A DNA stretch of 64,000 bases from a virus (lineage: Duplodnaviria; Heunggongvirae; Uroviricota; Caudoviricetes), in IMG/VR virus record IMGVR_UViG_3300042363_000940. One strand, written 5' to 3'. Positions within the stretch are counted from its first letter, which is position 1. Each line of letters begins with the position of its first letter. The notes below the pieces were generated by a model. That model was not told where the DNA came from. It saw nothing but the letters and a program-made list of their open reading frames with translations, and did no database searches. A program made the position numbers and the translations under genes. Shown here piece after piece: positions 1,737 to 25,201 of the stretch.

Positions 1737-1749
1737 GAATATTCCAAAT
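1737..1749 (-). promoter_or_regulatory. conserved promoter-like element (plus-strand GAATATTCCAAAT; minus-strand ATTTGGAATATTC)
   Basis: About 25-40 nt upstream of the minus-strand start at 1712; same motif at five further sites. Confidence 0.45.
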
Positions 1750-1845
1750 TATTCTTCAATGTTTTTTGATTTGAACCATAGGAGTATAACCCCCACGATT
1801 CCGTAGACAATTAAAAATGTCAATATGTGTTCAACGATTATCATA

Positions 1846-2115
1846 TTATTTTCCATCAAGATGAATGTCGGTTGCGTAATTCTTTTCCTTATTGAATAAA
1901 GGTTCTTGGTCTACCAACTCGTCATGTAGTGTCCAGTCATCATATGTTTTTTCACCATCGTTGAAACTCATATTATCTGAATTCTCTTTTAGGTATTCCA
2001 GCACCTGTTCTTCTTCCATACCCTGAAGTTCAGGATAGTTATCCGTGTCAATCTCAATTGATTTCTTTAGAATCCATGTGTGAAACCCTTCGCTTAATTG
2101 AATTTTTAGTTTCAT
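1846..2115 (-). CDS. hypothetical protein (89 aa)
   Basis: ORF abutting downstream gene. Confidence 0.45.
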   Translation of the reverse strand: MKLKIQLSEGFHTWILKKSIEIDTDNYPELQGMEEEQVLEYLKENSDNMSFNDGEKTYDDWTLHDELVDQEPLFNKEKNYATDIHLDGK

Positions 2116-2118
2116 AGT

Positions 2119-2382
2119 TTAAAAATTGTCCGTTGAATTCATTTTAATGTTCTCATCATATTTGGTTTTACCATAATGTTGAGCGTTAATTGTTTCACCG
2201 GTTGTTGTGAAGTAATGATGTTTACCCCCATCAAAGAATCGGTACATCTTTATACCATCCTTCTCGAATAGAAACTCAACTTGGAATCCATTACCCTCTG
2301 TTGTTGATGATTGTGGGTCCTTGTAACATCCTGTTAATAGAACACCCGCCAATAATAATCCTAATATTTTTTTCATTACCAA
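2119..2382 (-). CDS. putative lipoprotein (87 aa)
   Basis: N-terminus MVMKKILGLLLAGVLLTGC has a signal peptide plus lipobox LTGC. Confidence 0.55.
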   Translation of the reverse strand: MVMKKILGLLLAGVLLTGCYKDPQSSTTEGNGFQVEFLFEKDGIKMYRFFDGGKHHYFTTTGETINAQHYGKTKYDENIKMNSTDNF

Positions 2383-2609
2383 TTATCTAAGTCTGTTAAA
2401 TCTAATTCTGTTTTTGTGTTATGACTGTACACAACAATTTCACTACCAATACCCGTAGGGGTTACTTTCCATGTGAGTAGTCCGCACTCACCATAGATTG
2501 CCTTGATATGTGATTTCCACTCATTAAATTTATTTTGTTGCTCGTCGCTTAACTCAACAGTTATAGTGTTGTTTTTATTTTTCATAATACTTCGGTTAAT
2601 ACTCTCCAC
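2376..2609 (-). CDS. hypothetical protein (77 aa)
   Basis: ORF, 4-codon overlap with downstream gene. Confidence 0.45.
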   Translation of the reverse strand: MESINRSIMKNKNNTITVELSDEQQNKFNEWKSHIKAIYGECGLLTWKVTPTGIGSEIVVYSHNTKTELDLTDLDNW

Positions 2610-2965
2610 TCTTTTAATACGTTACCATCAAATATTACTTCAACGGGAATACCTTTTAGTTTATCAACACTACGTACCTTCGCGTCTTTAAGAAGTTTAG
2701 AAAGGAACCTCATAGTTTCTGAGTATCCTTTATCCCTATCTTCTTCTGTCCACTTACAGTGTTCACTCCACTTAATTGATTCAGCGTCCCAATTACCCTT
2801 GAAGTCTCCAACTGCCCAACCACCATCACCAAGAGTGATAGATAATCCAAGTTGAGAATCTTGATAACCACCAAGACCAAATTGTACCAATTCGATTTTA
2901 CCTAATTTCTTTTCCATATTTTTTTTATTTTTAGATTCCACGGAATAACCATGAAACAAATTCAA
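2582..2965 (-). CDS. hypothetical protein (127 aa)
   Basis: ORF in array. Confidence 0.5.
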   Translation of the reverse strand: MNLFHGYSVESKNKKNMEKKLGKIELVQFGLGGYQDSQLGLSITLGDGGWAVGDFKGNWDAESIKWSEHCKWTEEDRDKGYSETMRFLSKLLKDAKVRSVDKLKGIPVEVIFDGNVLKEWRVLTEVL

Positions 2966-3028
2966 TCATTAAGTAACACATCAAAGATATACTACCCAAC
3001 ACTAATAGTGTTGCTAAAATTTTATCTT

Positions 3029-3301
3029 TCATTTTACTTTAGGCATTAATTCACAATCAAATTTATAAAGTTCATTCACCACCGGAGTGTAACCCTTTAT
3101 TTTTGTTTTAATTACAATTTCTTTCCTATCCTCCAACATCAATCCAACAACCACACTATCATTCCATTGAAATGTCATAACATATGTAATCAGACCAGTG
3201 CACGATTTTGGTTTAACCTTTGTTTTTTCTTTTGGAACATCCTTAAAACTTGATAGTGTTACTATAACAACCATCAATAATAATGTGTGTTTTATTCTCA
3301 T
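3029..3301 (-). CDS. hypothetical secreted protein (90 aa)
   Basis: N-terminal hydrophobic signal-like segment MRIKHTLLLMVVIVTLSS. Confidence 0.5.
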   Translation of the reverse strand: MRIKHTLLLMVVIVTLSSFKDVPKEKTKVKPKSCTGLITYVMTFQWNDSVVVGLMLEDRKEIVIKTKIKGYTPVVNELYKFDCELMPKVK

Positions 3302-3307
3302 GTTGTT

Positions 3308-3490
3308 TTATTGACCAATCTGTTCACCAATCTGTATTGATAACGCCGCAATGAATGAAACTAACGCGATTCCACCAAATACCATTCTAACAATAAATCG
3401 AACCTTGCGGTTTTTAATGTTATCAACCAACACCCACATCGATAATAAAAATACCCAACCAATAATGTTTAAAAATGTTACTGTTAACAT
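3308..3490 (-). CDS. small membrane protein (60 aa)
   Basis: two hydrophobic helices. Confidence 0.4.
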   Translation of the reverse strand: MLTVTFLNIIGWVFLLSMWVLVDNIKNRKVRFIVRMVFGGIALVSFIAALSIQIGEQIGQ

Positions 3491-3491
3491 A

Positions 3492-3674
3492 TTATTTTCT
3501 TAGTTCGTTTAGTTTATCTGAAAGTAAGTCAACCTCAGTTTTTGTTTCGAGTTCTCCTTCTTCATTTATTTTACCCCACGTTTTTATTAAATTACCCGAT
3601 ATGATTTCATCAAACGTTAATCCACTGTAACTACTGTACTGTGAAATTGTGCCCAATATAGATTCTGTTTCCAT
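3492..3674 (-). CDS. hypothetical protein (60 aa)
   Basis: ORF abutting neighbours. Confidence 0.4.
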   Translation of the reverse strand: METESILGTISQYSSYSGLTFDEIISGNLIKTWGKINEEGELETKTEVDLLSDKLNELRK

Positions 3675-3797
3675 AATATTTTATTCTTTTAATTTGTTAG
3701 CAACCCATTCAGGGTCATTTTTAAATTCTTTCCATGTGTCGAAGTCCTTCAACGACTCAATGATTTCTAATAATCTATCTATTGTATCCATAATATT

Positions 3798-4730
3798 TTA
3801 AAAAGGTAACGAGTCATTATCATAAATTTCCGATGCTCGGTTTGTTTCATCATCTAATCTTCTCATTATTTCCTCAACCCTAATTCTTTCCTGCCATTGA
3901 AGTCCTTCATTTCGTTCTTGATATTGTTGTTCTTGATTTAATTCATTGGCAATTCTTCTAACATCATCAATATCAATATCATCACGAAAATGTGGAGGTA
4001 ATGGTGCATTTTGTTTTTTACTTTGTTGTATGGTTACCGCGATTCCATGGTTTTTTGCCAATTCAATAACTGACTCTCTTTTTTTAACCTCCTCAATCAA
4101 CACACCCATAACTTCATTTGGTATTGACCATAACATTGGATTACTTTCCTTGTCGTTGGCCAACCATCCCTGTACTTTATCTTCGGTTGTTGAAGATGAT
4201 ACCGCATATTTTACATTACTCTTCTTATTGATGATGTAAATCAATTTGTATTTTGATTTGTAATCGTCCCAATGTCTCTCCTGGGTTGTACACCACTTCG
4301 TATTTGCACCATACATCTTTGATGCCTCAAATGATAATGGAATTATAACCAACCAAAAATCGGTTTCATATAATTTCTTAACCTGTTTCTCAAGTTCCTT
4401 TAGTTTAACAACATCATCCGCTCGGTTTACTTCCTTCTTGATGTCATTAAAATTTTTATAATGACTAATGTCGGGATTACTCAAACGGTTTGCTCGAGAA
4501 TGTTTTTCAAAATCAATAAGTAATGCCAAATTTTCATATTCGAATAGTTTAATTACTATACTCCTATGTAACGCCTGAACATCTCCCTTCTTATAGTACT
4601 CGTTTTTGAGTATCTTGATAAGAAACCCCATATACTTGTAGGTCTCTGATGGTTCAACTGATGCAATAATGTCAATCAGTGAAACATTTAATTCCGGATG
4701 TTGTTCTTTTAACTTATCTAATCTTGACAT
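3798..4730 (-). CDS. large hypothetical protein, paralog A of the TKWCTTQE family (310 aa)
   Basis: Shares the block FWLVIIPLSFEASKMYGANTKWCTTQE...LIYIINK with the ORF at 19064-20083 (DDEWIVLRPLTYHSSRKYGSSTKWCTTQE...LLYMINK). Confidence 0.7.
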   Translation of the reverse strand: MSRLDKLKEQHPELNVSLIDIIASVEPSETYKYMGFLIKILKNEYYKKGDVQALHRSIVIKLFEYENLALLIDFEKHSRANRLSNPDISHYKNFNDIKKEVNRADDVVKLKELEKQVKKLYETDFWLVIIPLSFEASKMYGANTKWCTTQERHWDDYKSKYKLIYIINKKSNVKYAVSSSTTEDKVQGWLANDKESNPMLWSIPNEVMGVLIEEVKKRESVIELAKNHGIAVTIQQSKKQNAPLPPHFRDDIDIDDVRRIANELNQEQQYQERNEGLQWQERIRVEEIMRRLDDETNRASEIYDNDSLPF

Positions 4731-4732
4731 AT

Positions 4733-5032
4733 CTACTTAGGTATTCTATCCAACACTCTTTCCACCATATCTTCTCTTATCCGATAGTTGTTTTCATTGT
4801 CGAATGACTGTTGCGATATGTACTCACCGGCACGATTCTTAAACCTCGCGTAGATACCATTACTTTGGTGGGTAAAACCATTCGTCTCCAAATAATCTTT
4901 AACATAATCCTTACCACTAAATCCTTGTTGTTTAACGGTTACGAAAAAAAGTCTATCCGCAAAACTAATCGATACATCCGAAAACTTTATGTATGAATGT
5001 AGGTGTTCGTGTACTTGAATGTTACTATCCAT
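4733..5032 (-). CDS. hypothetical protein (99 aa)
   Basis: ORF with the promoter-like motif 37 nt upstream (5069-5081). Confidence 0.5.
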   Translation of the reverse strand: MDSNIQVHEHLHSYIKFSDVSISFADRLFFVTVKQQGFSGKDYVKDYLETNGFTHQSNGIYARFKNRAGEYISQQSFDNENNYRIREDMVERVLDRIPK

Positions 5033-5068
5033 GATGGTTTATTTTTATAAAGGATAAGAAATTTTTCC

Positions 5069-5081
5069 GAATATTCCAAAT
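5069..5081 (-). promoter_or_regulatory. conserved promoter-like element
   Basis: TCCGAATATTCCAAATT, 37 nt upstream of the start at 5032. Confidence 0.45.
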
Positions 5082-5084
5082 TGT

Positions 5085-5822
5085 TTACCAATAACCCACA
5101 TCTTTTTTAAAGAAATCGTTATTGCCCCTGTTTCTGTAACTCTTAATGAGTAACTTAATCATACCAAAATACCCCATCTTTTTAAACCTCCTATCATCTT
5201 GACCAATATAGTGATTTGAAATTTTAAAGTTTTCGGGGTAAAACTTCTTACTCAATACATAATCCTCAGAGTGATTTAATGTTTCATCAAACCCACCGAA
5301 AAGATTAAACATCTTTCTATCAACCATGAAATAGGTTCCAACTGCAAAGGGGGTGACCTTACTAACAAAGTAATTCACGATATTAAACATTTTAAACATA
5401 AGTGAAGTTCTAAAATCATTACCATATGATTCTAATTTACAGGTTAATAGTTGTAATTCCCTCTCTTCCATTTCATTTAATGTATTTTTAATGGTATGGG
5501 AGTCATCTAAAATTACATCACCGTCAATGAATAAGATATATTTGGTATCAACCAATTTTGCCCCATTGTTTCGACCAACTGATACGGTACCCCCATCAAT
5601 CAATTCTATCTTTAGTTTCTTCTGATAAAAGAATGATTGTTTTTTAATTACCTTTCGAGTTCCATCATTACTATGATTGTCCGCAATTATCACTCTTGTT
5701 CCCCGTATACCGGTTTGGTTATGTATTGAATGTAATGTACGCTCAATGTAATTTGCTTCGTTATATGTTGGGATAACGATTGTAAGGTTATTTTTTATTG
5801 AAGTGTTTTGTGAATTTGCCAT
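5085..5822 (-). CDS. family-2 glycosyltransferase (GT-A fold)
   Basis: N-terminal TIVIPTYNEANYIERTL...IIADNHSNDGT and a DXD motif FIDGDVILDD. Confidence 0.8.
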   Translation of the reverse strand: MANSQNTSIKNNLTIVIPTYNEANYIERTLHSIHNQTGIRGTRVIIADNHSNDGTRKVIKKQSFFYQKKLKIELIDGGTVSVGRNNGAKLVDTKYILFIDGDVILDDSHTIKNTLNEMEERELQLLTCKLESYGNDFRTSLMFKMFNIVNYFVSKVTPFAVGTYFMVDRKMFNLFGGFDETLNHSEDYVLSKKFYPENFKISNHYIGQDDRRFKKMGYFGMIKLLIKSYRNRGNNDFFKKDVGYW

Positions 5823-6480: not shown

Positions 6481-6484
6481 CATT

Positions 6485-7210: not shown

Positions 7211-7419
7211 TAAGATTCTCTTTCTTTTCTATCTATGTATCTATGTACAATAATTAACAATATCATTACGATTATACTTTGCTGTGCTGGTATTGGTAAA
7301 AACATCACTAACGCCATGCAGATACCATAAAGAAAATCGTTCCAATCCTTCTTGATGAGTGACCCTAAAATATAGAGACCCCATATAATTCCAATCACTA
7401 TGTTGAAGACTACTAACAT
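7210..7419 (-). CDS. small membrane protein (69 aa)
   Basis: Two transmembrane segments. The promoter-like motif at 7445-7457 sits upstream, which favours this frame over the overlapping 7241-7477 ORF. Confidence 0.4.
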   Translation of the reverse strand: MLVVFNIVIGIIWGLYILGSLIKKDWNDFLYGICMALVMFLPIPAQQSIIVMILLIIVHRYIDRKERES

Positions 7420-7444
7420 TGTTCCAAATATAAAAGATTATTTT

Positions 7445-7457
7445 GAATATTCCAAAT
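7445..7457 (-). promoter_or_regulatory. conserved promoter-like element
   Basis: TTTGAATATTCCAAAT upstream of the start at 7419. Confidence 0.45.
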
Positions 7458-7513
7458 AATACCCTGATTTTTTTCAAAATCGGTATATATATGGATTATA
7501 AAAACTTATAACA

Positions 7514-7918: not shown

Positions 7919-8005
7919 TTTATTTATATTTTCCGAATAAATCTATGTAATATTGGTGGTGTTCTCAATATAGGGGCGGTGATATTTATATATAAATAAA
8001 AAATT

Positions 8006-9316: not shown

Positions 9317-10189
9317 TTATAATATTTCTTTTAAAGTTATTTCTTGTGGTGAATTTATAATTTTAGGACCTTCTCTAAACCATTTAGTGATGATGTTTTT
9401 TTCACCCGAGATAACCGGTAGTCCGCAATGTTTTGCGTATTCATTTGGTTTTCCATTTCTTAAAATATTAGACCAAACAACGGCAGTTCCGGTATTCGGA
9501 ATTAATGTTTTATCGATTTTTGTGAAGTGTGTTTCACCACCCTCTTCCACATCATTAAGATAAACCATGAATGTCCACGTTCTTTGACCAAGATTAACTA
9601 ACCCCACTTTATTGGGTTCGTAATTCTCATCAAAATAATCACCGTGTTCTTTAAATTGTTGACCAACTAGATACTTCTGACCTTGTGGTATTTCACCCAA
9701 CTCGTGGGGTAATTTCATAAACGAATGTATCTTATCATTTACGGATTTATAGATTGGATTATCTAAAAACATATCACAGGTTGAACTGGTTCTAACGTCT
9801 TCAACATTAGTATTTGTAACCACTGTTGATTGTCTCAACTTACCAACCATCTGTTCTATTAACTCCCCACATTCTTCACCCGATAAGAAGTTTGGTATTG
9901 TATAAATTTCCAAAAACTCAGTCTCGATTCTATAAACACCTGAGTTATCACACAACGGTTTATAGAGAGGTTGAATGGTAAATGGTGGTGTTTCATTAAG
10001 GGCTACTTGGGTATCCTTTCTTTTTTGTATCAAAGGATTTGAAGGTGTCATATCTAATTCTTTAGAAATTAAATCATATTCAAATCCATGATTTAATAAT
10101 ACGTTAAAGATATTTTCTTTACCTAAACCATTTACTACGTTTGTCCAAATCCAAACTTTCCATTCCGGTGATAAACTTTTGATAATCAT
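9317..10189 (-). CDS. prolyl 4-hydroxylase-like 2OG-Fe(II) oxygenase
   Basis: FMVYLNDVEEGGETHF...GTAVVWSN matches the P4Hc core (MxYLNxVEEGGETxF). Confidence 0.75.
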   Translation of the reverse strand: MIIKSLSPEWKVWIWTNVVNGLGKENIFNVLLNHGFEYDLISKELDMTPSNPLIQKRKDTQVALNETPPFTIQPLYKPLCDNSGVYRIETEFLEIYTIPNFLSGEECGELIEQMVGKLRQSTVVTNTNVEDVRTSSTCDMFLDNPIYKSVNDKIHSFMKLPHELGEIPQGQKYLVGQQFKEHGDYFDENYEPNKVGLVNLGQRTWTFMVYLNDVEEGGETHFTKIDKTLIPNTGTAVVWSNILRNGKPNEYAKHCGLPVISGEKNIITKWFREGPKIINSPQEITLKEIL

Positions 10190-10459
10190 TTTTATTTATA
10201 TTGATTGAATAAATCTATGTAATAATCCACCTTTTCGGGACGGACTGTCATTGAGAAATAAAATTGTTTTTCTTTAATTCCTTTTGGGAATTTTGTGCGC
10301 ATTAGATTAAATAACTCTCTTCTTTCGACAGTAGGGTTATGATATTCGTGTTTCATTTTTTTGTTTATAAACTACAATATACAATAACAGAAACAAGTAC
10401 CATCCACAGTACGAGTACTCCGGCAATTGCCCAATCCGTAGATTTCCAATTCTTCATTT

Positions 10460-14002: not shown

Positions 14003-14797
14003 TTAACTTAAAGAGTTAGGTAAGTATAGTAATGTTGGATTCTTTTTTTGTATATCTAATTCGGGATAGTTCTCTTTGAATTTCATAACATCAAACTTTT
14101 TAGTAATTAAGTGATGACCATTCTTAGTTGGAATAACCGCCTCGAGTTTCGGTCCCACTTTATAACCTATTGGCATACCCGCACTGTCGAACTCAACTTC
14201 AGTAATTGGTTTACATTCGTATTCAATAAATGCAACCATAAGAGGACTCATTTCTTTTATGTCATCAACATCAATAATCCATCTCTTCTCCTGTGTTTTA
14301 ATTTGACCAACAACTGAATCAAATAACCCCTTTTGGTTGTGTTGACCATTCTGAATACGTTGTGCCAAATCAACCATCATGTTTAATGACACATCAAAAT
14401 GGTTTTGTTTCTGAACGTGGATGTACGCTCTCGCCTTAAACATCTCACAGAGTTGTTTAATCTCTTCATACCTACGTTCAAGATGTTCGATACTTTCAAT
14501 ACAGTAAGTCTTAATTGTCCTTACCGATTGGTGATTATCTCTTTCACCTTCGGGTTGGTCTTTCTTACGTTTAAAAACATATAACATGTAGAAGTCCCCA
14601 CTTTTTTCAAAGTTCAAGAGAGGTCTAATTAAATCTATATTGTCCATACTACTTTGTTTATTGTTTGTCATTCTTTTTTCTTTTAACCATTCGTTTAATG
14701 ATTCACTTGTTTCGTTACTTAACGCATTGTCAAGTTTTTCTTCGAGTTTGTTTAAGTCTAAGTTGCTCACTATTGTTCCATTGTTGGTTTTAACCAA
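14003..14797 (-). CDS. hypothetical protein (264 aa)
   Basis: ORF. Confidence 0.55.
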   Translation of the reverse strand: MVKTNNGTIVSNLDLNKLEEKLDNALSNETSESLNEWLKEKRMTNNKQSSMDNIDLIRPLLNFEKSGDFYMLYVFKRKKDQPEGERDNHQSVRTIKTYCIESIEHLERRYEEIKQLCEMFKARAYIHVQKQNHFDVSLNMMVDLAQRIQNGQHNQKGLFDSVVGQIKTQEKRWIIDVDDIKEMSPLMVAFIEYECKPITEVEFDSAGMPIGYKVGPKLEAVIPTKNGHHLITKKFDVMKFKENYPELDIQKKNPTLLYLPNSLS

Positions 14798-15504
14798 AGA
14801 GTATTATCTTTGAAGATGTAGTTCCTTAATGCTGGGTATTCATGTAATGTCTTCAATGTTTTAACGGTATCGTGTTTAAAACATTTGAATAATTCCTCTC
14901 TAATTCTTTCAGTTGATACAACACCCATCTTACCAACATAATCATAATCTTGCATAATACTATCCATCGCCGGTCCTATCCAAAATCCTTTGGTTATACA
15001 GAACCTGATTGCTCTCAGAATACGAAGTGGGTCGTCATCAAATGTATCGGTACATGGTAATGGTGTACGAAGATACCCTCTCTTTAAATCCTCAATCCCA
15101 TTAAAGTAATCTATGATATTCCCATCACCGTCTTTTGCCAACGCGTTCAATGTAAAATCCCTACGTTCTAAATCGTCATATAAGGTCCCTGGTTTAACGA
15201 TAGGTATTCGGGTACCACTTATGTATCCAACTTCCTTTCGAGCCATTACGAAGTCTGCAACACCTTGGTAACGGTGTCCCTCAGGGAACCGTGCTCTAAT
15301 GGTGAAACATGATGGTGTTTCCAAGAATATTTCAAACTTTTCAGAGACAAGATAATAGTGTAAAACCGTGAACATATCCTCCGCCTCAGTGTATAAATCC
15401 AATAAAGATTGGGTGGGTACTGCAACATAATCCACATCTTTAGATGTTAACCCCAAGATTTCGTCCCTTACTTTTCCCCCAACTTCGTAAAATGTAAAAC
15501 TCAT
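14770..15504 (-). CDS. cca: tRNA nucleotidyltransferase (CCA-adding enzyme)-like, minimal head domain
   Basis: YEVGGKVRDEILGLTSKDVDYVAV (GGxVRD, DxD) and the RRDFTLNALA motif typical of class II CCA-adding enzymes / poly(A) polymerases. Confidence 0.8.
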   Translation of the reverse strand: MSFTFYEVGGKVRDEILGLTSKDVDYVAVPTQSLLDLYTEAEDMFTVLHYYLVSEKFEIFLETPSCFTIRARFPEGHRYQGVADFVMARKEVGYISGTRIPIVKPGTLYDDLERRDFTLNALAKDGDGNIIDYFNGIEDLKRGYLRTPLPCTDTFDDDPLRILRAIRFCITKGFWIGPAMDSIMQDYDYVGKMGVVSTERIREELFKCFKHDTVKTLKTLHEYPALRNYIFKDNTLWLKPTMEQ

Positions 15505-15540
15505 AATATTTTTTATGGTACAAATATAAGAGATTACTTC

Positions 15541-15553
15541 GAATATTCCAAAT
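15541..15553 (-). promoter_or_regulatory. conserved promoter-like element
   Basis: TTCGAATATTCCAAATT, 37 nt upstream of the cca start at 15504. Confidence 0.45.
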
Positions 15554-15569
15554 TATTTGTAAATAAAAA

Positions 15570-15602
15570 ACCCCCATAAACTATGAGGGTTTTAATTCTA
15601 AA
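15570..15602 (-). terminator. rho-independent terminator downstream of the glucosaminidase gene
   Basis: AAAACCC...GGGTTTT hairpin followed by a T-run on the minus strand. Confidence 0.45.
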
Positions 15603-15709
15603 AAACAAATTTAACCAATATGACAGAAAGTGCGGTAGTCACCGATACACATACTCAGGGTAGTGTTATGATAATGATAACAAATTCTATTTGGTTTTTA
15701 AAGTCATTT

Positions 15710-16276
15710 TTAAAATAATTCTTTTAGTTTGTGTTTTTCTATCACATCTTTCAATGAGGTAACATATTTGTCCCCCGACTCGGCGTAACTACCACTGAGG
15801 TAAGTGAAATATTCCTGTTCGTTACGAATAGATGAAAGGTATCGACATTGATAGAATGCGTAATCGTAAACAGATTCATACCAGTTCTCATAGTATGCAT
15901 GACCATTCTGTGTACCCTTAGCGGTGTTGATTCGAATAGTTGCCTGTTTCATTCCAAATAAGTTGTGGTTCTCTTTGAATATGTTACTTTTAAATGCACC
16001 TGTCTCAAGAATAGATTGTGCCATTACTATATGAGGAAAACGAACATTCAATCGTTTAAGTTCATCGGCAAATTTATCTTCAGTGAATTCATTTTTTTGT
16101 TGGTCGAGACTAACAACCAATAGTTCCATTTCATGTTCATCTAATGTTGTGAACCTATAGAATCTACCAAGTAGGAACGTTGCGAACATTAAGACCACAA
16201 CGACTGATAATGCAATCTTTGTTTTCTTTAAATCTTTCCTCCACACTAATGTATTTGTATCAAATTTATAAAACAT
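15710..16276 (-). CDS. membrane-anchored peptidoglycan hydrolase, FlgJ-type glucosaminidase domain
   Basis: N-terminal transmembrane helix, then SILETGAFKSNIFKENHNLFGMK, which matches the Glucosaminidase (PF01832) signature. Confidence 0.75.
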   Translation of the reverse strand: MFYKFDTNTLVWRKDLKKTKIALSVVVVLMFATFLLGRFYRFTTLDEHEMELLVVSLDQQKNEFTEDKFADELKRLNVRFPHIVMAQSILETGAFKSNIFKENHNLFGMKQATIRINTAKGTQNGHAYYENWYESVYDYAFYQCRYLSSIRNEQEYFTYLSGSYAESGDKYVTSLKDVIEKHKLKELF

Positions 16277-16318
16277 AATTTTAGGTTTTTAGGGTTAAAC
16301 AAACATCGGACCAAACTC

Positions 16319-16481
16319 AATTGTTCAATTTACTGTAATGAAATTCATAATATTCCTTACTCATTAAATGACCAACGATAATCTTGGTCATCCTTAACGC
16401 CTCGTCAAACGTTTCGTAGTAAAACGTTTTACCATTGTCGGTGACAATTACCCAATTCTTTATATTTTTTAGGTCATTCAT
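16319..16481 (-). CDS. small hypothetical protein (54 aa), not in the ORF track
   Basis: ATG at 16479-16481, translation MNDLKNIKNWVIVTDNGKTFYYETFDEALRMTKIIVGHLMSKEYYEFHYSKLNN; variant promoter-like motif upstream. Confidence 0.3.
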
Positions 16482-16553
16482 TGTGAATAGTTTTAAACTT
16501 CACTACAAATATAGTAAGGTTTTTGGAATATCCAAAAAAAATTAAAAATATTT

Positions 16554-17357: not shown

Positions 17358-17837
17358 TTAATATAAGTAAAGTTTTATACCACAGAATAAGTTATGTTCG
17401 TTTTTCATATTCACATAACTTACTGAAGCATAAAATGGGTATGTTAGTTTATAGTCCGCACTTACTCTAAACATTGTTTTAGTATAGTCCCTAACATCAA
17501 CACCCAACCCAATTGTTGGTACAAGTCTCTTAATGTCTTTATGTCTAAAAACATAGTTACCACCAACGTAAACATCATCACTGTATGCGTTAAAAACAAA
17601 TGGTTCGTTGTTTACCATATACAAACCGGCGGACATTCTCCTGTGTCCAATTTCAATATTAGACATTCCGTACCTATTGGATAATGAATACCCAACTGAA
17701 TAGAACGAACCACCACCTCTATTCCCGTAGGATAATGAGTAGTTGAACGCCTTTTGAAACGGTCTACTCAATAAAGATGATGGTTGCCCAAACAACTGTA
17801 GAGGTAAGATGAACAGTAATGTTATTAATAATTTCAT
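17358..17837 (-). CDS. secreted protein, possible small outer-membrane beta-barrel
   Basis: Signal peptide MKLLITLLFILPLQLFGQ, alternating hydrophobic pattern, C-terminal aromatic ...LYLY. Confidence 0.45.
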   Translation of the reverse strand: MKLLITLLFILPLQLFGQPSSLLSRPFQKAFNYSLSYGNRGGGSFYSVGYSLSNRYGMSNIEIGHRRMSAGLYMVNNEPFVFNAYSDDVYVGGNYVFRHKDIKRLVPTIGLGVDVRDYTKTMFRVSADYKLTYPFYASVSYVNMKNEHNLFCGIKLYLY

Positions 17838-18232
17838 ACACTTTTGGGGTCGATTCCCACTTTAGCAAAAACATTTTCACATCTTTCTCTGAATACCGAA
17901 TCAGTACCAAATAAATCTTCAAACGTTCTAATGGAATGAATGATTGTTGTGTGGTCTTTACCGCCCACCATCTCACCAATCTTCGCTAAAGAAAATCTCG
18001 TCTTTCTTTTAATAATGTACGCAATTAAATGTCTTGATTCGACACACTCTCTCTTTCTTGAACGAGAGATAATTTGTTCTTTTGTTAATCCATAATCCCG
18101 ACCAACAATTTCAAAAATTTGTTCTTCTGTAATAACCATTTTGGATTTCTTCAAATACGGATGTTTTCTTGAATCTAAAAATTCAATCTTCAAACCCGGA
18201 TATATGTAAGGACTTATTTTTTTGTTAGGCAT
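17834..18232 (-). CDS. DnaA domain IV-like DNA-binding protein
   Basis: SRSRKRECVESRHLIAYIIKRKTRFSLAKIGEMVGGKDHTTIIHSIR matches the DnaA C-terminal helix-turn-helix (RxxxxARxxAMYLxxxxTxxSLxxIGxxFGGRDHTTVxHA). Confidence 0.7.
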   Translation of the reverse strand: MPNKKISPYIYPGLKIEFLDSRKHPYLKKSKMVITEEQIFEIVGRDYGLTKEQIISRSRKRECVESRHLIAYIIKRKTRFSLAKIGEMVGGKDHTTIIHSIRTFEDLFGTDSVFRERCENVFAKVGIDPKSV

Positions 18233-18438
18233 TAATCAACAATTTTTCTGACGAAATAAGTGTGACCTGAGTCGGTATTGGCATTCAATAACTCGACCAT
18301 TTTGTTTACCTCTTCTTCTGACTCAAACTCTTCAACTTCACCTAGTGAATCATTCATAATGATGTTGATGTAGTGAGGTTCCCCGTCTCCGTGGAACTTG
18401 TTAGAAACCATTTTTTTTACGATGATGTATTTTCCCAT
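18232..18438 (-). CDS. hypothetical protein (68 aa)
   Basis: ORF. Confidence 0.4.
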   Translation of the reverse strand: MGKYIIVKKMVSNKFHGDGEPHYINIIMNDSLGEVEEFESEEEVNKMVELLNANTDSGHTYFVRKIVD

Positions 18439-18439
18439 G

Positions 18440-18988
18440 TTATTTTGTTAAATAAAGTCTGTTGTGATTGTAAAGTGCAACGGGATTGTTGTCTGCAATT
18501 TCACCATACTTACTCATTACGTGTTCGTATGCCAAATCCTGCGGTTCATTAATAACTTCCGATAAGATATTACAGAAACCAAAGTTAGATTCATCAACGG
18601 AATCTTGTTTTGTACCGGGTAAACCACAGTAGTATGCCTCCCCAACTTCGCTGATGAACATTCCACTATAGAAACCTTTCAATCCAAATGGTTGAACGAA
18701 TCTATCGGCGTTACACCAAATGAATACTGAGTTGTCTTTCTCACTTAATACGGGTACAACGTTTTTATCAATAATGTATGGACCATACCCTTTGAATGTA
18801 CCAACCGAGAACAAACCACCGGGTGAACCGTGACCCATCATCATAACTCTATCGTGTTCTCTGATTAGTTCAATCAGTTCTTGTTGACTTACACCACCAG
18901 TTATTACTGTTTTGTTTGGTATAGGATTATAGACAATATCCAAGAATGATGTTGAACTGTCTTTCGGATGTACTATTAATGTTTTCAT
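18440..18988 (-). CDS. hypothetical protein (182 aa)
   Basis: ORF with the promoter-like motif at 19012-19024 upstream. Confidence 0.55.
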   Translation of the reverse strand: MKTLIVHPKDSSTSFLDIVYNPIPNKTVITGGVSQQELIELIREHDRVMMMGHGSPGGLFSVGTFKGYGPYIIDKNVVPVLSEKDNSVFIWCNADRFVQPFGLKGFYSGMFISEVGEAYYCGLPGTKQDSVDESNFGFCNILSEVINEPQDLAYEHVMSKYGEIADNNPVALYNHNRLYLTK

Positions 18989-19011
18989 TGTACAAAGGTA
19001 TGTTTATTTTC

Positions 19012-19024
19012 GAATATTCCAAAA
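19012..19024 (-). promoter_or_regulatory. conserved promoter-like element
   Basis: TTCGAATATTCCAAAAAT upstream of the start at 18988. Confidence 0.45.
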
Positions 19025-19063: not shown

Positions 19064-20083
19064 TTAACCTCGAGCCATACCAATATCAAATCCTGTGTTA
19101 TACGCTGCGGTGCCCCCTCTCATATCTCCAACAGTTAGTTCACCGTGATAACGATTTTCTACGCGCATATCAAGGGCAGACTCTTCAGTAACTTCCATAT
19201 CAGTCGGACCTTCGTCAACCATAGGTGATTCCATTGCCACTTCCATTGGTTCTTCACGAGATATGAGATATTTTTCTCGTCGATTCATAAGTTCCTCTTG
19301 TTTTTTCAAGTCTTCCTCACTTAATAATAATAAGTTCGATACTGGATTCTTAAAAACTTCTTCTTTGATACATTCCATTATGAATAATGGTAATTCACTT
19401 TCAATTGAATCGATTCTTGTATCCGCTTGATTCCAAAATGAGAACTCAGGTTCAAGGTCTAACGATTTAAAACATGCAACTTTTAGACCTGTTACTTTGT
19501 TAATCATGTAAAGAAGGATTCCTCTCTTTGCATAACGAATAAAGTACTCAGGGTTATTCTCTTGAGTTGTACACCATTTAGTAGATGAACCATACTTACG
19601 AGACGAATGATAAGTTAAAGGTCTAAGAACAATCCACTCATCATCTGAGTATATTACTTTGATTTGTTTTTCCAAATCTTTCTCAAGTGTCTTTACCTCA
19701 GCAATACCAGTTGCCACCATAATCTCATCAAACGTACTGTAACGAGACAAATCACTTTGTTCAATCAAACCTCTTTCATTGTACTCACAAAACTTCATGA
19801 ATGACTTCAAATCATTATGGTTAAACATAATGTCAATGAAACGGTACATAAACATTAGTTGTAGTGGTGTGAAGTCACTAAGGTCCTCCTCACTAATTCC
19901 GTAGTCCTTTTTGTACGATGCGATAACTTCTTTTTGGTATTCATCAAGATTTTTAGTTTTCTTCATAACACGCATCAATGTCTCAACGTATTTTGTTTTT
20001 TTCTCAGGCACAAACAATTCAACAATGTCAATCATGTTGATGATGTGTTCAGGATTTGTTTTTAAGTTTCTAATTCGTGACAT
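19064..20083 (-). CDS. large hypothetical protein, paralog B of the TKWCTTQE family (339 aa)
   Basis: See 3798-4730; shared block around SRKYGSSTKWCTTQE. Confidence 0.7.
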   Translation of the reverse strand: MSRIRNLKTNPEHIINMIDIVELFVPEKKTKYVETLMRVMKKTKNLDEYQKEVIASYKKDYGISEEDLSDFTPLQLMFMYRFIDIMFNHNDLKSFMKFCEYNERGLIEQSDLSRYSTFDEIMVATGIAEVKTLEKDLEKQIKVIYSDDEWIVLRPLTYHSSRKYGSSTKWCTTQENNPEYFIRYAKRGILLYMINKVTGLKVACFKSLDLEPEFSFWNQADTRIDSIESELPLFIMECIKEEVFKNPVSNLLLLSEEDLKKQEELMNRREKYLISREEPMEVAMESPMVDEGPTDMEVTEESALDMRVENRYHGELTVGDMRGGTAAYNTGFDIGMARG

Positions 20084-20093
20084 AGTATATTTT

Positions 20094-20720: not shown

Positions 20721-20911
20721 TAGTCTAAGGATTTAATTATCATTACGAATATGATGAATAGAATAATGAGCGCAAAACCACCCCACAAAGGTGCGGTTAC
20801 CCACCACCAAGACCAATCAATAAAACCCGTAAGTTTAAGGGTCATGAAAATTAAAAACATCAGTCCGAAGAAACCTATCCCCCCTGATGAACTTGAATTA
20901 CTGTTCGACAT
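20720..20911 (-). CDS. small membrane protein (63 aa)
   Basis: Two hydrophobic helices, Trp-rich. Confidence 0.4.
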   Translation of the reverse strand: MSNSNSSSSGGIGFFGLMFLIFMTLKLTGFIDWSWWWVTAPLWGGFALIILFIIFVMIIKSLD

Positions 20912-21386
20912 TTTTTTTAAAATTATATTTGGTTGTTAATATTTCAATTGTTTTCTCTGCGGATGTGTGTTGTATACCAATACCACCGGCACCAATCCAA
21001 CCATCGATATTATCTTTTCTATCGTCAATTAGAATTGAATTTGGTTCCGCGAAATCTTTCTTGTGTTTAGCACTTCTAAGAATAAGTTGTGTGCCAGGTA
21101 ATTCTCTTTCAACCCAATCATGTTTGGCAACACGAGAATCATTCTGCCTTGATGGGGCAGATAAAATAAAGGGGTTATGTGGTTTAATAAAATCCCACAA
21201 GATGTGACCATCGTTCATCCATTTTAAGTTAATCCAAAAGTCATAACCGGCAGAATTAATCGGGTCCCAAAAATTAGTATCGTTTCGATGTTCACCATCC
21301 AAATCGTGACCGGTTAAATTCTTATATCCTTTATTGAAATCAATAAGGACACCATCAAGGTCACAGTATATTTTATAATCACCCAT
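20898..21386 (-). CDS. HAD-family 5'(3')-deoxyribonucleotidase-like
   Basis: N-terminal YCDLDGVLIDF motif typical of NT5C-type nucleotidases. Confidence 0.65.
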   Translation of the reverse strand: MGDYKIYCDLDGVLIDFNKGYKNLTGHDLDGEHRNDTNFWDPINSAGYDFWINLKWMNDGHILWDFIKPHNPFILSAPSRQNDSRVAKHDWVERELPGTQLILRSAKHKKDFAEPNSILIDDRKDNIDGWIGAGGIGIQHTSAEKTIEILTTKYNFKKNVEQ

Positions 21387-21450
21387 ATTTTAGAGATGTT
21401 TTTACAAATATACAAAAATGTTTTTAAATAAAAAAACTGGTAAGTATTAT

Positions 21451-21789
21451 TTACCAGTTTTCGTCATCGTCATCACCAAAGTCGTCTTTAAAATCGTCAT
21501 CTTCATAATCATCCTCCTCATCAACATGTTCGTCCTCCAATTCTTCAATTAGTGATTCATATACTAAATCCTCACTTACCCAATCAGGTAGGTCTTCATC
21601 TGTGTTTGATTCATAATTTTTAATGTCGATATCCTCACGATTAATATAGTTTGAGTCTCCGTAAGAATCTTCAATTATTTCGGGTTCATTGTACCACGAG
21701 TAACTTACATATACCTCGGCTTCGTCAGAACTATTAGGGTCGTATATTGTGACAACTTTAGTATTCAGTCCTTTTTTTGATTTTCCCAT
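21451..21789 (-). CDS. acidic hypothetical protein (112 aa)
   Basis: D/E-rich C-terminus. Confidence 0.45.
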   Translation of the reverse strand: MGKSKKGLNTKVVTIYDPNSSDEAEVYVSYSWYNEPEIIEDSYGDSNYINREDIDIKNYESNTDEDLPDWVSEDLVYESLIEELEDEHVDEEDDYEDDDFKDDFGDDDDENW

Positions 21790-21817
21790 AGTTTAAATTA
21801 AGATATTTATTAATAGA

Positions 21818-22366
21818 ATGTTCAAATATATATCTGTAATATTATCAAAATTCACTCAAGGTCAAAGAATTATTGCCCTGTTGTTATTATTATTGTCTAT
21901 AACATTCATTTCTATTGGTCCAAAAATAGTGGAATCGTTAACTTACAGTGATGTGGAATTGAAATCAAAAGTAGAGTCTCAAACCACACAAATACTTGAA
22001 TTGAACGACAGAGTAACTGAATTAAATACTCAAATTATATCCAACCAAAGACAATGTACAGATGCAATTGTTGAAAGAGAAAAAGAAATCATGGGTGAGA
22101 TTATTGCACTTGAGGGTAGGGTTAAACAACAAACCAATCCACTTGGTGGGTCCGATAATGGTCGTGAGAATGGTTCGGGTACACCACATCAAAGAATGTC
22201 GATGAAAACGATAGATACGGTAAACATGGAAATGATTGTTCTCGAGTCTACACCTCCACCACCCATACAGAAAGAAAAGACCCAACCAACATCATTGATG
22301 TTAGATGGGCTAAGTAAAATTAAAAAGAATCTAAATAATAGTATTAATTCAAAGAAAAAGAATTAA
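21818..22366 (+). CDS. membrane protein with coiled-coil (182 aa)
   Basis: N-terminal transmembrane helix and heptad-like region; the only long ORF filling a gap between minus-strand genes. Confidence 0.45.
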   Translation: MFKYISVILSKFTQGQRIIALLLLLLSITFISIGPKIVESLTYSDVELKSKVESQTTQILELNDRVTELNTQIISNQRQCTDAIVEREKEIMGEIIALEGRVKQQTNPLGGSDNGRENGSGTPHQRMSMKTIDTVNMEMIVLESTPPPPIQKEKTQPTSLMLDGLSKIKKNLNNSINSKKKN

Positions 22367-22602
22367 TTTCCTTTAGCAACAACTTCGGGGTTATCGGTAT
22401 GTGCGTCTTTCACAACATAAAAATTACCTTCTTCGTCTTGCGCCAAACTTAATAGAACCGCTTGTTCTTCTTCATAACTATCAGCACCCGGTAACTCCTC
22501 AGGTTGAACCTTAGTATCGAAATCATCGAATTCAGCCTCTTTTATTGTCTTTTTTACGATGTTCTCGATATCTGAAATACTCAATTTAACTATTTTAGCC
22601 AT
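22363..22602 (-). CDS. acidic hypothetical protein (79 aa)
   Basis: ORF. Confidence 0.45.
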   Translation of the reverse strand: MAKIVKLSISDIENIVKKTIKEAEFDDFDTKVQPEELPGADSYEEEQAVLLSLAQDEEGNFYVVKDAHTDNPEVVAKGN

Positions 22603-22639
22603 GATGTGTTGTTTTATATATAAATATCATTTAAAATGA

Positions 22640-22665
22640 AAAACCCCTCCGAAGAGGGGTTGTTA
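22640..22665 (-). terminator. rho-independent terminator after the SPFH gene
   Basis: On the minus strand AACCCCTC-TTCG-GAGGGGTT followed by a T-run. Confidence 0.5.
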
Positions 22666-23589
22666 TTATTTAATACCTATCATTGAACTAGTTTTGTCCC
22701 CTAACATCGTTTCGGGTAACTTACCATTCCATTTGTTAATCCACTCAAGTTGTAACAACATAGGGGTAATTGTCTTTTGTTTTAGACTGTTTGCCTCTGC
22801 CTCAGCCTTCGCTGCGGTTAACATTGCCTGAGCGTTACCGTTGGCGGTTGCGATTTTAATCTTAGCCTGAGCCTCAGCAGTTTTAACTTGATTTTCAGCC
22901 ATCAAAGAACTTTGTACGGCATTATTCTTAGCCTCGATTGACTTTTTAAATGTCTCAGGATAAATCAAATTAGAAGTGAATTGATTAATAACAAATCCTT
23001 CTTTTTGTAATTGACTCTCCAACAATCTACGAACCTCGACTTCAAACACCGCTCTATTTGATATGAGTTCATCTGCGGTATACTTATTGGTTGCCAAACG
23101 GAACGCATCGTACACTGCGGTCTTTAAAAATCCCTCCTCAATCTCGGGTAATGACCTACGATATTTCGCGAAGATGAATGGGACTCTTTCTCGTTGAACC
23201 GAATAGTTCACAATTGGGGATACATGGAATTCACTACCGTCTTTTGAGTTAACGATAAATGAGTTATCCGCATCTTCTGTCTTGGTGTATTCTTTGTGTT
23301 GGATGTAAATCGGGAACTCATAAATTTTTGTAGTTAATGGATTGTAAAACACCATACCGGTACATTCCGTAACATCATCCACTCCTTTACCTGTTCCATA
23401 AAGATTAACTTTAACACCTACGTGTCCTGCATCGATTCTCTCACATGAGAAGAATAACGTGATAAGTAGAATAAATCCTACGACTCCTAAAATAATTGAT
23501 TTCATTGTTTTTTTTCTTTTTATTTGTTCTTGTAATTTACGTTCTTGACGTTCCTTTTCTTGTTGTAAATAATAATTCTGGTAATCCAT
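22666..23589 (-). CDS. SPFH/band-7 (stomatin/prohibitin-like) membrane protein
   Basis: N-terminal transmembrane helix and the Ala/Gln/Glu-rich block KTAEAQAKIKIATANGNAQAMLTAAKAEAEA typical of SPFH proteins. Confidence 0.75.
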   Translation of the reverse strand: MDYQNYYLQQEKERQERKLQEQIKRKKTMKSIILGVVGFILLITLFFSCERIDAGHVGVKVNLYGTGKGVDDVTECTGMVFYNPLTTKIYEFPIYIQHKEYTKTEDADNSFIVNSKDGSEFHVSPIVNYSVQRERVPFIFAKYRRSLPEIEEGFLKTAVYDAFRLATNKYTADELISNRAVFEVEVRRLLESQLQKEGFVINQFTSNLIYPETFKKSIEAKNNAVQSSLMAENQVKTAEAQAKIKIATANGNAQAMLTAAKAEAEANSLKQKTITPMLLQLEWINKWNGKLPETMLGDKTSSMIGIK

Positions 23590-23595
23590 TTATGT

Positions 23596-23970
23596 TTATT
23601 TTTTTGGTTTATTTATTACCTCCGTTTTTGGTTTTCTTTTTTTCTTTGGTTTGACAAAAACAATTTCGGGATAATAATCCAACTCCGTTTCAGGTTCTTT
23701 ATCGGGTTCAGGTTCGAACAATGGATGTACCTTTGGTGTGGTATCCAAAAACGTTACCTTAACATAATATATTACAAATAATAGTACGAACACCGCACCG
23801 ATACCCGAAAGAATATTATACAATGTGTTTGCCACGGTTAAACCGGGGAAGATAATAAATTGGAAAAATCCAATTACCCCAGTCATTACAAAGAACGATT
23901 GTAAAATTGGGGATTTGATTAGTTCAGAGAAAACTTTTTTCATGATTGTTTGGTTTTTTAAAATATACAA
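23596..23970 (-). CDS. two-pass membrane protein with charged tail, possible SPFH partner (NfeD-like role)
   Basis: Immediately upstream of the SPFH gene; two transmembrane helices then a Lys/Glu/Pro-rich tail. Confidence 0.5.
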   Translation of the reverse strand: MYILKNQTIMKKVFSELIKSPILQSFFVMTGVIGFFQFIIFPGLTVANTLYNILSGIGAVFVLLFVIYYVKVTFLDTTPKVHPLFEPEPDKEPETELDYYPEIVFVKPKKKRKPKTEVINKPKK

Positions 23971-23991
23971 ATTAATTTTTAATTTTCCAAA

Positions 23992-24648
23992 TTACCCAAC
24001 AACATTTTTCATGTCATCATTGTGATGGTCAAGAGGTCCCATCTCAGAACCAATTGGTACTTTTAACATTGGGTTCATTACCTCATGAACAAAGTCATAT
24101 GGTCTAAACTCGGGATGTCCGTCCATACCAACATCCATTCTTCTTCCACCACTAACCTTAGCGTGATGAGGTAGGTGACAATGACCATGTAAATGGATAC
24201 GACCTTTTCTTAGATTGTTCCAAGATGTGATTGGGTAATGTAACATCTCAAATGAATGACCTTGGTATTCAAGTCTATTGTAGTGACTAACACTGGCAAA
24301 TAAACTCTTACAGTTTTCACGATTTCTTTCAATGTGATGGTCATGATTACCTAACAAGATATGAATCTCTTGACAGATGATTCTATTTCTGAATTCCGCA
24401 ATGTTCTCGAACCCACCGAATGACCAATCACCCAAGTGAATCAACACATCATCTTGACCAACAACTTCATTGATGTTGTTTACAATCGCAGCGTTCATCT
24501 TATCAAGAGTTGCGAAATCTCTTGTTTGACTAACGGGAATACTACCGTCGGGCATTCTCCAATTAGTAATTCCTCTACATATATTAGTATGTGAGTAATG
24601 TGTGTCAGATGTTATCCAAACCTTTCTACTATTATCTATCCTTAACAT
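23992..24648 (-). CDS. calcineurin-like metallophosphatase
   Basis: Motifs ITSDTHYSH, HLGDWSFG, LGNHDHH, HLHGHCH. Confidence 0.75.
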   Translation of the reverse strand: MLRIDNSRKVWITSDTHYSHTNICRGITNWRMPDGSIPVSQTRDFATLDKMNAAIVNNINEVVGQDDVLIHLGDWSFGGFENIAEFRNRIICQEIHILLGNHDHHIERNRENCKSLFASVSHYNRLEYQGHSFEMLHYPITSWNNLRKGRIHLHGHCHLPHHAKVSGGRRMDVGMDGHPEFRPYDFVHEVMNPMLKVPIGSEMGPLDHHNDDMKNVVG

Positions 24649-24649
24649 A

Positions 24650-25150
24650 TCAACTAAATTCTGTTGATGTACTTACACGAAGTCCATCGATTATTAAATC
24701 ATCATATTTTTCATTATCCATCCAAAAGGCACCATGACCTTTTGCTCTTTGTTCTTTACGATATTCTTCGTTGACAACCCAACCATCGGGTTCACCCCAT
24801 TCGAGTGCCATGGTAATAAACTCTTCAACATTTTCTTCTTCACCATATTCATCTACAACCCTACCTGAACGAATGAACGATAAAAGTTCTTCCTTATTGG
24901 AATAATATTTGTCCTTGTGAAAATTCCAACAGAACTTCCATCCACCACTTCGTTTACCTAAATGAATATTGGTACCATCGAGAAAATCATCCCAAACAGA
25001 AATAGAGTCCCAAGAATCTTCTTTAGTTACGCGGAATCCCCTTTCAATATTACTCGGAGTTAAATCTAAATCCATAACTCGTTGGATAAGAACCTTTTTT
25101 CTTTCGTCCATCTCACTCTCAAGTGGTATATGGTAATAGTTTGTGCCCAT
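24650..25150 (-). CDS. hypothetical protein
   Basis: Start moved to MGTNYYHIP (ATG at 25150) because the promoter-like motif at 25189-25201 lies inside the longer ORF. Confidence 0.5.
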   Translation of the reverse strand: MGTNYYHIPLESEMDERKKVLIQRVMDLDLTPSNIERGFRVTKEDSWDSISVWDDFLDGTNIHLGKRSGGWKFCWNFHKDKYYSNKEELLSFIRSGRVVDEYGEEENVEEFITMALEWGEPDGWVVNEEYRKEQRAKGHGAFWMDNEKYDDLIIDGLRVSTSTEFS

Positions 25151-25188
25151 AATAATTATATTATGATACAAAGATAAAAAATAATTTC

Positions 25189-25201
25189 GAATATTCCAAA
25201 T
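25189..25201 (-). promoter_or_regulatory. conserved promoter-like element
   Basis: TTCGAATATTCCAAAT, 39 nt upstream of the trimmed start at 25150. Confidence 0.45.

Follow-up and report, generated by a model that had tools for sequence, protein, structure and literature searches.

A repeated dyad box in an uncultured caudovirus genome forms the upstream part of putative host-type sigma-A promoters

The promoter-early stem-loop (PeSL) cassettes of T4-type phages are repeated, intergenic units that combine a strong promoter of the host consensus with an AT-rich upstream region and a stem-loop with G/C runs, and they lie among variable genes of unknown function (PMC2839356, PMC4122927). They are the closest described objects to the elements reported here, which are built around a short motif repeated in a stretch of 64,000 nucleotides (nt) from the Caudoviricetes record IMGVR_UViG_3300042363_000940 (this whole stretch is called the window below). 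As to the promoter itself, the consensus of the primary sigma factor in Bacteroides consists of a -33 element, TTTG, and a -7 box, TAnnTTTG (PMC7366714); in Flavobacterium psychrophilum the sigma-A -7 box occupies positions -12 to -5 (PMC9723704), and in one study of F. johnsoniae the -33 element was not detectable at all. Leaderless messenger RNAs (mRNAs) account for 3.7-5.5% in such host bacteria (PMC9723704, PMC7366714). Moreover, a Bacteroides phage promoter, P_BfP1E6, was found to be several-fold above the ribosomal RNA (rRNA) and rpoD promoters in uninfected B. thetaiotaomicron (bioRxiv 10.1101/2025.03.18.644028). An earlier note on the window had described a conserved 16-nt promoter-like motif ahead of at least six minus-strand genes; our literature searches on the motif string and on promoters of Bacteroidota phages retrieved no earlier description.

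We consider it probable that the copies of this motif are the upstream halves of complete Bacteroidota sigma-A promoters, read by the host, equipped with an extended -33 box and combined with terminators into cassettes. In the proposed layout, a -33 TTTG would be followed, across a spacer of 19-20 base pairs (bp), by the -7 box TAnnTTTG, with transcription starting ~5 nt after its final G, and TTTG-GAATATTC-nAAA at about -32 to -21 would constitute the extended -33 box. The earlier note had likened the TTTG to the 3' end of a -7 box and had put the motif at the transcription start. Promoter coordinates checked base by base contradict both assignments: given the published consensus and its placement, and since a TAnnTTTG lies downstream, the TTTG corresponds to the -33 element, and because the real -7 box is found 19-20 nt downstream of it, the motif covers about -36 to -21. 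The note was thus right that a promoter lies upstream of, and is oriented with, the minus-strand genes, but it mis-assigned the parts of the element. Likewise, its "phage-specific" promoter stands as a promoter, but not as one of new polymerase or sigma specificity, since both core elements match those used by the primary sigma factor of the host, in sequence as well as in spacing.

The -33 TTTG is kept in all eight promoters that carry the box, with a spacer of 19 or 20 bp (19-21 bp in Bacteroidota sigma-A promoters), and a perfect TAnnTTTG is present in seven of the eight, both insertion/deletion variants (16536 and 31048) included, in the forms TATATTTG, TATCTTTG, TACCTTTG and TATTTTTG; the remaining promoter, P2, has the poor -7 box TATCCTTT. 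A strict search of the window for TTTG-N17-23-TAnnTTTG returned ten minus-strand matches, five of them with the exact 12-mer GAATATTCCAAA (on the minus strand, TTTGGAATATTC), one being the deletion variant (16536) and two being weaker relatives (31048 and 1056); the other two, which lie within coding sequence or antisense to it, are probably due to chance. The eight box promoters would tile the minus strand from ~31 kilobases (kb) down to ~1.7 kb, each heading a predicted operon of small, mostly unknown and auxiliary genes. They are given below together with two weaker sites and the operons behind them (ORF, open reading frame).

P1, 1712-1748, minus strand: box TTTGGAATATTCTAAA at 1733-1748, -7 box TATATTTG at 1717-1724; the start predicted at 1712 coincides with the first base of ORF 1083-1712, the A of its ATG; predicted leaderless.
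P2, 5044-5080, minus strand: box TTTGGAATATTCGGAA at 5065-5080, imperfect -7 box TATCCTTT at 5049-5056.
Operon behind P2, minus strand: ORFs 4733-5032 and 3798-4730 (TKWCTTQE protein), then further genes.
P3, 7420-7456, minus strand: box TTTGGAATATTCAAAA at 7441-7456, -7 box TATATTTG at 7425-7432, ATG at 7419, 5 nt past the box; predicted leader of 0-1 nt.
P4 with terminator, 15516-15593, minus strand: hairpin 15567-15593 followed by a T-run, box TTTGGAATATTCGAAG at 15537-15552, -7 box TATATTTG at 15521-15528.
Gene headed by P4, minus strand: cca (14770-15504), with a leader of ~12 nt.
P5, variant with a 1-nt deletion, 16501-16536, minus strand: box TTTGGATATTCCAAAA at 16521-16536, -7 box TATATTTG at 16506-16513; heads ORFs 16317-16481 and 15710-16276.
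P6, 18988-19023, minus strand: box TTTGGAATATTCGAAA at 19008-19023, -7 box TACCTTTG at 18993-19000, predicted start 18988, the A of the ATG; predicted leaderless.
Operon behind P6, minus strand: ORFs 18440-18988, 18232-18438 and 17834-18232 (DnaA domain IV-like protein), then further genes.
P7 with terminator, 25164-25238, minus strand: hairpin 25211-25238, box TTTGGAATATTCGAAA at 25185-25200, -7 box TATCTTTG at 25169-25176.
Operon behind P7, minus strand: ORFs 24650-25150 and 23992-24648, then further genes.
P8, variant with a duplicated GGATAT, 31013-31048, minus strand: box TTTGGATATGTGGATATTC at 31030-31048, -7 box TATTTTTG at 31018-31025.
P9, weak relative, 1022-1056, minus strand: TTTG at 1053-1056, 18-nt spacer with AGAATATATTG, -7 box TATCTTTG at 1027-1034, ATG 1022 at the predicted start; predicted leaderless.
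P10, degenerate, 23960-23991, minus strand: TTTGGAAAATTAAAAA at 23976-23991, imperfect -7 box TATATTTT at 23960-23967, upstream of ORF 23596-23943.
17834-18232, minus strand: stand-alone DnaA domain IV-like helix-turn-helix protein of 132 amino acids, conserved across the clade; candidate reader of the box.

As had been claimed, motif copies precede cca (14770-15504) and the TKWCTTQE protein (3798-4730), the latter being the second gene behind the copy at 5080, and the genes driven would be accessory or belong to nucleotide or RNA metabolism (cca and its neighbours). A near-identical copy of P3 is found in the relative L106. The TKWCTTQE protein has a diverged paralogue in the window, so that the SxTKWCTTQE motif appears both in 3798-4730 (minus strand, 310 amino acids) and in 19064-20083 (minus strand, 339 amino acids); the family was found again in relatives, with partial copies on some short loci.

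All six sites of the earlier note are present in the window, and the 13-nt coordinates it gave delimit the core common to them. Its conserved 16-mer holds to the letter, as TTCGAATATTCCAAAT, only at 15538-15553 and 25186-25201, but falls one mismatch short at 1734, 5066, 7442 and 19009, while the 12-mer is identical in six of six. With up to three mismatches the 16-mer matches the window 14 times, compared with 2.8 ± 1.6 in shuffled sequences, and none of 100 shuffles reached 14 or more; an independent repeat finder returned the motif family as the largest direct repeats (family D1, five copies of 56 nt; family D4, six copies of 19 nt). The centre GAATATTC is palindromic, as stated in the note, and the symmetry extends to 16 of 18 positions (ATTTsGAATATTCsAAAT). 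It occurs seven times in the window, six times within the intergenic 7.7% left between our own ORF calls, and hence the motif is not equally frequent in coding regions. These six intergenic copies have the same orientation relative to the downstream gene, and the six copies of the 12-mer are likewise all intergenic and gene-oriented, as the note had it. Both degenerate copies proved real, the one at 16521-16536 (TTTGGATATTCCAAAA) representing a 1-nt deletion and the one at 31030-31048 (TTTGGATATGTGGATATTC) a duplication of GGATAT. The distance between motif and ATG had to be corrected from 25-45 nt to 20-35 nt, measured from the end of the 16-mer.

The promoter is conserved across a clade. In IMG/VR, at least 115 loci were found to have the exact box with a -7 box behind it, and 48 of those found have proteins in common with the window. 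Orthologous box promoters stand upstream of cca in L102 (in the same layout), upstream of the 182-amino-acid gene behind P6 in L105, L047, L099 and L103, and upstream of other genes; relatives differ in whether a given orthologous gene has a box promoter to itself. Against circularity, a motif-blind set of 231 loci (4.0 megabases, Mb) was picked by protein similarity only; in these loci, probably large uncultured phages of Bacteroidota, the unique strict promoters number 179 for the gene strand and 81 for the opposite strand. Over these 4 Mb, ATAT occurs within 7 nt after TTTG in 52% of the gene-strand promoters versus 12% of the opposite-strand matches. In the first 1.3 Mb, a -7 box follows 47 gene-strand copies of the box (up to one mismatch), is missing behind 3, and was never found behind an opposite-strand copy. 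Of the 8-mers that come after TTTG in the relatives, the most frequent are GAATATTC (19), GAATATAC (10) and TGATATCA (9), then several GATATTCn forms, and the exact 12-mer is kept between phages whose proteins are only 30-70% identical. One window protein has 305 matching stretches in IMG/VR, and the contigs concerned reach 430 kb. Among GenBank phages, no near-identical match to the first 25 kb was found. MT835470, which contains the best cca match, was discarded as a relative, having only 4 proteins in common with the window and no motif. In the Cellulophaga phage phi17:2 we found 19 strict promoters, none of which has the box, and no TTTGGAATAT anywhere in the genome, which rules out the box as a general feature of Flavobacteriia phages; its ATAT centre would be specific to the present clade.

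A Shine-Dalgarno-like 4-mer is found upstream of only 3 of the 88 window ORFs, and sigma-70-type promoters occur in the window at shuffle level, without enrichment; both observations fit a Bacteroidota host. Among named phages, homologues of ORF 14003-14671 are found only in those of Cellulophaga, Tenacibaculum and Prevotella, the other matches being unassigned metagenomic records (~30-34% identity). The window has matches to cca, thymidylate synthase, a DNA methylase, glycosyltransferases and virion structural proteins, and it contains no transfer RNA (tRNA) gene and no match to any Rfam family.

The spacing between promoter and gene suggests that many of the transcripts have no leader. An ATG stands 4 nt after the -7 box at 1712, 11216, 18988 and 1022, and 5 nt after it at 7419; with the G of the -7 box at -5, the predicted start coincides with the A of the ATG at 1712, 18988 and 1022 and lies one base before the ATG at 7419. 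Since the predicted start is at the ATG or 1 nt before it, the mRNAs of four promoters of this architecture (P1, P3 and P6 with the box, and P9) are probably leaderless. In the relatives, distances between the -7 G and the first open ATG fall into two modes, a spike at 4 nt (44 of 179 strict promoters; 31 of 94 ATAT-box promoters) and another mode at 14-21 nt. Because the spike puts the A of the ATG at the expected +1, it gives in-silico support to the start-site geometry, and it would imply many more leaderless mRNAs in the phage clade than in the hosts.

Some of the copies lie right behind an intrinsic terminator and would thereby form insulated terminator-promoter cassettes, gained or lost together with the gene they drive. 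In the window, terminator-like hairpins are located directly upstream of P4 and P7 (two of the eight copies); in the relatives they are found directly upstream of 45 of 89 box promoters versus 19 of 400 random positions, often with G/C runs. The cca gene with its terminator-promoter cassette is present in the window and in L102, and missing from the same slot in L105 (L105 7735-8200, compared with window 14671-15710), where an unrelated small ORF replaces both between the orthologues of 14003-14671 and 15710-16276. Their joint absence from L105 indicates that gene and cassette are gained or lost as a unit.

As to the reading of these promoters, we infer that unmodified host RNA polymerase most likely uses them early in infection, with no phage factor. 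The flanks of the box (TTTGG...TTC and the A-run) would probably add contacts or a favourable DNA geometry, giving a strong promoter; this strengthening is probable since the same flanks occur in a subclass of host tRNA promoters. In a sample of ~120 host tRNA promoters from metagenomes (L473-L592), chosen by TTTG, -7 box and tRNA 5' sequence with the box ignored, TTTGG-N4-TTC was present in 10 of 121, usually with an A-run after it, versus 1 of 47 other promoter matches in the same loci, and the phage box, TTTGG-AATA-TTC-nAAA, matches this template. Furthermore, of 120 exact-box promoters from bacterial genomes, 14 have a tRNA gene 12-61 nt downstream. These data hint at a TTTGG-N4-TTC subclass of tRNA promoters in the hosts, outside the published -33/-7 consensus, and the flanks may be what makes a Bacteroidota promoter strong. 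A host regulon was considered and rejected: in the bacterial records retrieved, the exact box with a -7 box is single per locus, some of these records come from outside Bacteroidota, and such occurrences are compatible with chance in a promoter context.

Several observations weigh against a promoter read purely by the host sigma factor. The box is more strictly conserved in the window than the -7 box, P2 combining a perfect box with a poor -7 box, which is unusual for such a promoter. The 3 of 48 to which the tRNA enrichment was compared come from the same loci, themselves chosen for the motif. The ATAT core occurs in only 8 of the ~120 host tRNA promoters and GAATATTC in none, so that a host preference leaves the core unexplained; the strict promoters of phi17:2 do without any box; and the early timing is read from gene content and analogy only. 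In addition, the box is dyad-symmetric, with outer pairs that co-vary in the relatives, as would fit a dimeric DNA-binding protein. Possibly, though in our opinion rather doubtfully, the near-identity of the copies is kept mainly by recombination between cassettes (concerted evolution, PeSL-like mobility), with no protein reading the extra bases. The similar stretch measures ~56 nt, starting at the ATG, including the -7 box and ending ~10 nt upstream of TTTG (family D1), the cassettes come and go with genes, as cca illustrates, the box promoter of one orthologous gene is found in some relatives and is absent from others, and PeSLs have been described as recombination points (PMC2839356, PMC4122927). 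However, within the cassette the box is far better conserved than the spacer or the flanks, and the persistence of the 12-mer between phages with proteins 30-70% identical points to selection on the bases themselves.

In another reading, the promoter is of the sigma-A type and the dyad box TTTnGAATATTCnAAA serves as an operator over -36 to -21 through which a phage-encoded DNA-binding protein, with 17834-18232 as one candidate, would switch the whole set on or off together; we regard this as fairly unlikely. The box forms a perfect palindrome of 8 bp and is symmetric at 16 of 18 positions, alternative boxes in the relatives are palindromic too (TGATATCA, GATATATC), and outer-pair complementarity in the relatives exceeds that of shuffles (53 of 67 versus 36, and 33 of 67 versus 24), but frequent variants are non-palindromic (GAATATAC, ten times; GCATATTC, GTATATTC, TATATTCA), the covariation derives from few orthologous promoter classes, hence from few independent events, and is suggestive only, and the outer arms coincide with the -33 TTTG and the A-rich spacer, both of which host promoters have as well. 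The clade specificity of the ATAT core, with no GAATATTC in the sampled host tRNA promoters and no box in phi17:2, would suit an operator. The DnaA-like gene belongs to the P6 operon, is the first gene behind a box-type promoter in ~12 distinct relatives, most with the exact box, recurs downstream of an exact box on the same strand in the separate lineage L118, and is absent, with the box, from phi17:2; yet most genes of the block are behind a box promoter, so that its position says little. Alignment of the protein to DnaA indicates that base-contacting residues are kept (GGKDHTTIIH), namely R399, D433, H434, T435 and H439 in the numbering of E. coli DnaA. Pfam searches of 87 ORFs (giant ORF excluded; 25 of 47 matched families listed) and of 47 small ORFs in full revealed no helix-turn-helix or sigma family except the DnaA domain IV-like one, nor a DNA-binding match in any other screened window ORF among those 25 families. 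Of the 9 positions of the DnaA box TTATCCACA, the box matches only 6, with the P8 variant alone reaching 8 (ATATCCACA at 31032-31040), and the window shows no excess of DnaA boxes (33 versus 31.6 expected); the box as a DnaA box and DnaA-box clusters were accordingly discarded, as was a second operator upstream of the DnaA-like gene, because the TTTGGGAATTTCTAAA found there in the relatives belongs to the coding sequence of the preceding gene, at its 3' end. The specific version, in which the ATAT dyad box is the operator of a phage regulator, possibly the DnaA domain IV-like protein autoregulated from a box promoter, appears improbable to us; if true, the entire early gene set would be gated by a single small, autoregulated protein throughout a very large clade of uncultured large or jumbo Bacteroidota phages, and the DNA-binding domain of a replication initiator would have been re-used as a global transcription switch. 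We judge it highly improbable that these are middle-type promoters requiring a phage activator and a sigma-remodelling factor, like the T4 MotA box at -30 with MotA and AsiA. A conserved box near -28 with a host-type downstream element does resemble the T4 middle layout (PMC2988021), but all copies have the -33 TTTG at its canonical distance, while no -35 element is present in MotA-dependent promoters, and Pfam scans of the window ORFs (25 of 47 matched families listed) detected no MotA, AsiA or sigma domain.

The window also contains other putative promoter elements. The octamer TATAAATA, which is identical to the T4 late-promoter consensus, is found 3-11 nt upstream of four ORF ATGs, at 7991-7998 (plus strand) and at 10193-10200, 51080-51087 and 52745-52752 (minus strand), two of these sites lying in a structural-looking block. 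Overall it has 10 copies, 6 of them intergenic, and is not enriched; the four sites could represent a second, late promoter class. An 88% identical direct repeat of 34 nt (7919-7952 and 10191-10224) reads TTACATAGATTTATTC-N6-TATAAATA on the minus strand, and one copy lies directly upstream of ORF 9317-10189, while the other has no close downstream gene. Another recurring intergenic box, TATTTATATATAA, is situated 10-17 nt upstream of four ORF starts (7984-7997, 22613-22625, 26807-26817 and 41776-41786), one copy standing directly behind the bidirectional terminator 22642-22661; the lack of a TAnnTTTG box at these sites suggests a separate class of promoters.

Regarding the rest of the gene content, Pfam matches among the small ORFs in 1-42000 include the anti-CBASS protein Acb1, a SET domain, S-adenosylmethionine decarboxylase, an RNA-repair HAD domain, a 2'-5' RNA ligase-like domain and NT5C. 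A glutamine synthetase catalytic domain is present among the larger ORFs of the same region, and the matches together suggest a set of anti-defence and host-takeover genes. A lineage of large aquatic Bacteroidota phages that resembles the clade of the window has glutamine synthetases and its own sigma factor, and no RNA polymerase genes (PMC12619734). At 41999-49105 a plus-strand block runs against the main orientation of the window with a reversed GC skew; it encodes glycosyltransferases and a UDP-galactopyranose mutase (55-58% identity to genes of Streptococcus phages and of gut phage contigs), and it looks like a module for surface-polysaccharide modification. A single minus-strand ORF of more than 3,223 codons occupies 54325-63996 and leaves the window at its end; its first 1,225 residues have no PHROG match.

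Taken as host-read sigma-A promoters with an extended -33 box, the elements are a real but fairly ordinary feature, namely phage promoters for host RNA polymerase with a clade-specific extra box. They provide a usable promoter model (-33 TTTG, ATAT-centred box, -7 box, frequent leaderless starts) for a large clade of uncultured freshwater phages, which would improve the annotation of operons and start codons in this clade and supports the assignment of Bacteroidota hosts from sequence alone. They are also candidates for very strong constitutive promoters in the engineering of Flavobacteriia and Bacteroides. What makes them interesting is that host preference does not account for the clade-specific ATAT core, that predicted leaderless starts are so frequent and that the uncultured clade is so large.

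Compared with PeSL cassettes, the window has a similar repeated intergenic unit, with a host-consensus promoter, an AT-rich upstream region and, for some copies, a stem-loop terminator, placed in blocks of small unknown genes that vary between relatives. Unlike PeSLs, however, the window promoters follow the Bacteroidota -33/-7 rather than the sigma-70 consensus, the stem-loop lies upstream of the promoter instead of inside it and accompanies two of eight window copies and about half of those in relatives, and there is an extra dyad box together with many predicted leaderless starts. The counterpart of PeSL recombination and mini-circles is here confined to the cca-cassette insertion/deletion, which is compatible with it; the window contains no T4 core gene, and PHROG matches in its structural part were uninformative. 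T4 middle promoters have in common with the window a conserved box in the -30 region and a host-type downstream element, but they are the poorer match because the -33 element is retained here; nor was a MotA or AsiA homologue among the Pfam matches of the window ORFs (25 of 47 families listed). Whereas Bacteroidota hosts have a weak -33 element in their sigma-A promoters, conservation here is highest in the -33 region, which is extended by GAATATTCnAAA, and the predicted leaderless promoters make up roughly a quarter to a third, versus the 3.7-5.5% of the hosts. Finally, the elements would resemble P_BfP1E6 in being phage promoters that serve the host polymerase without phage factors, and that promoter outperforms the rRNA and rpoD promoters of its host.

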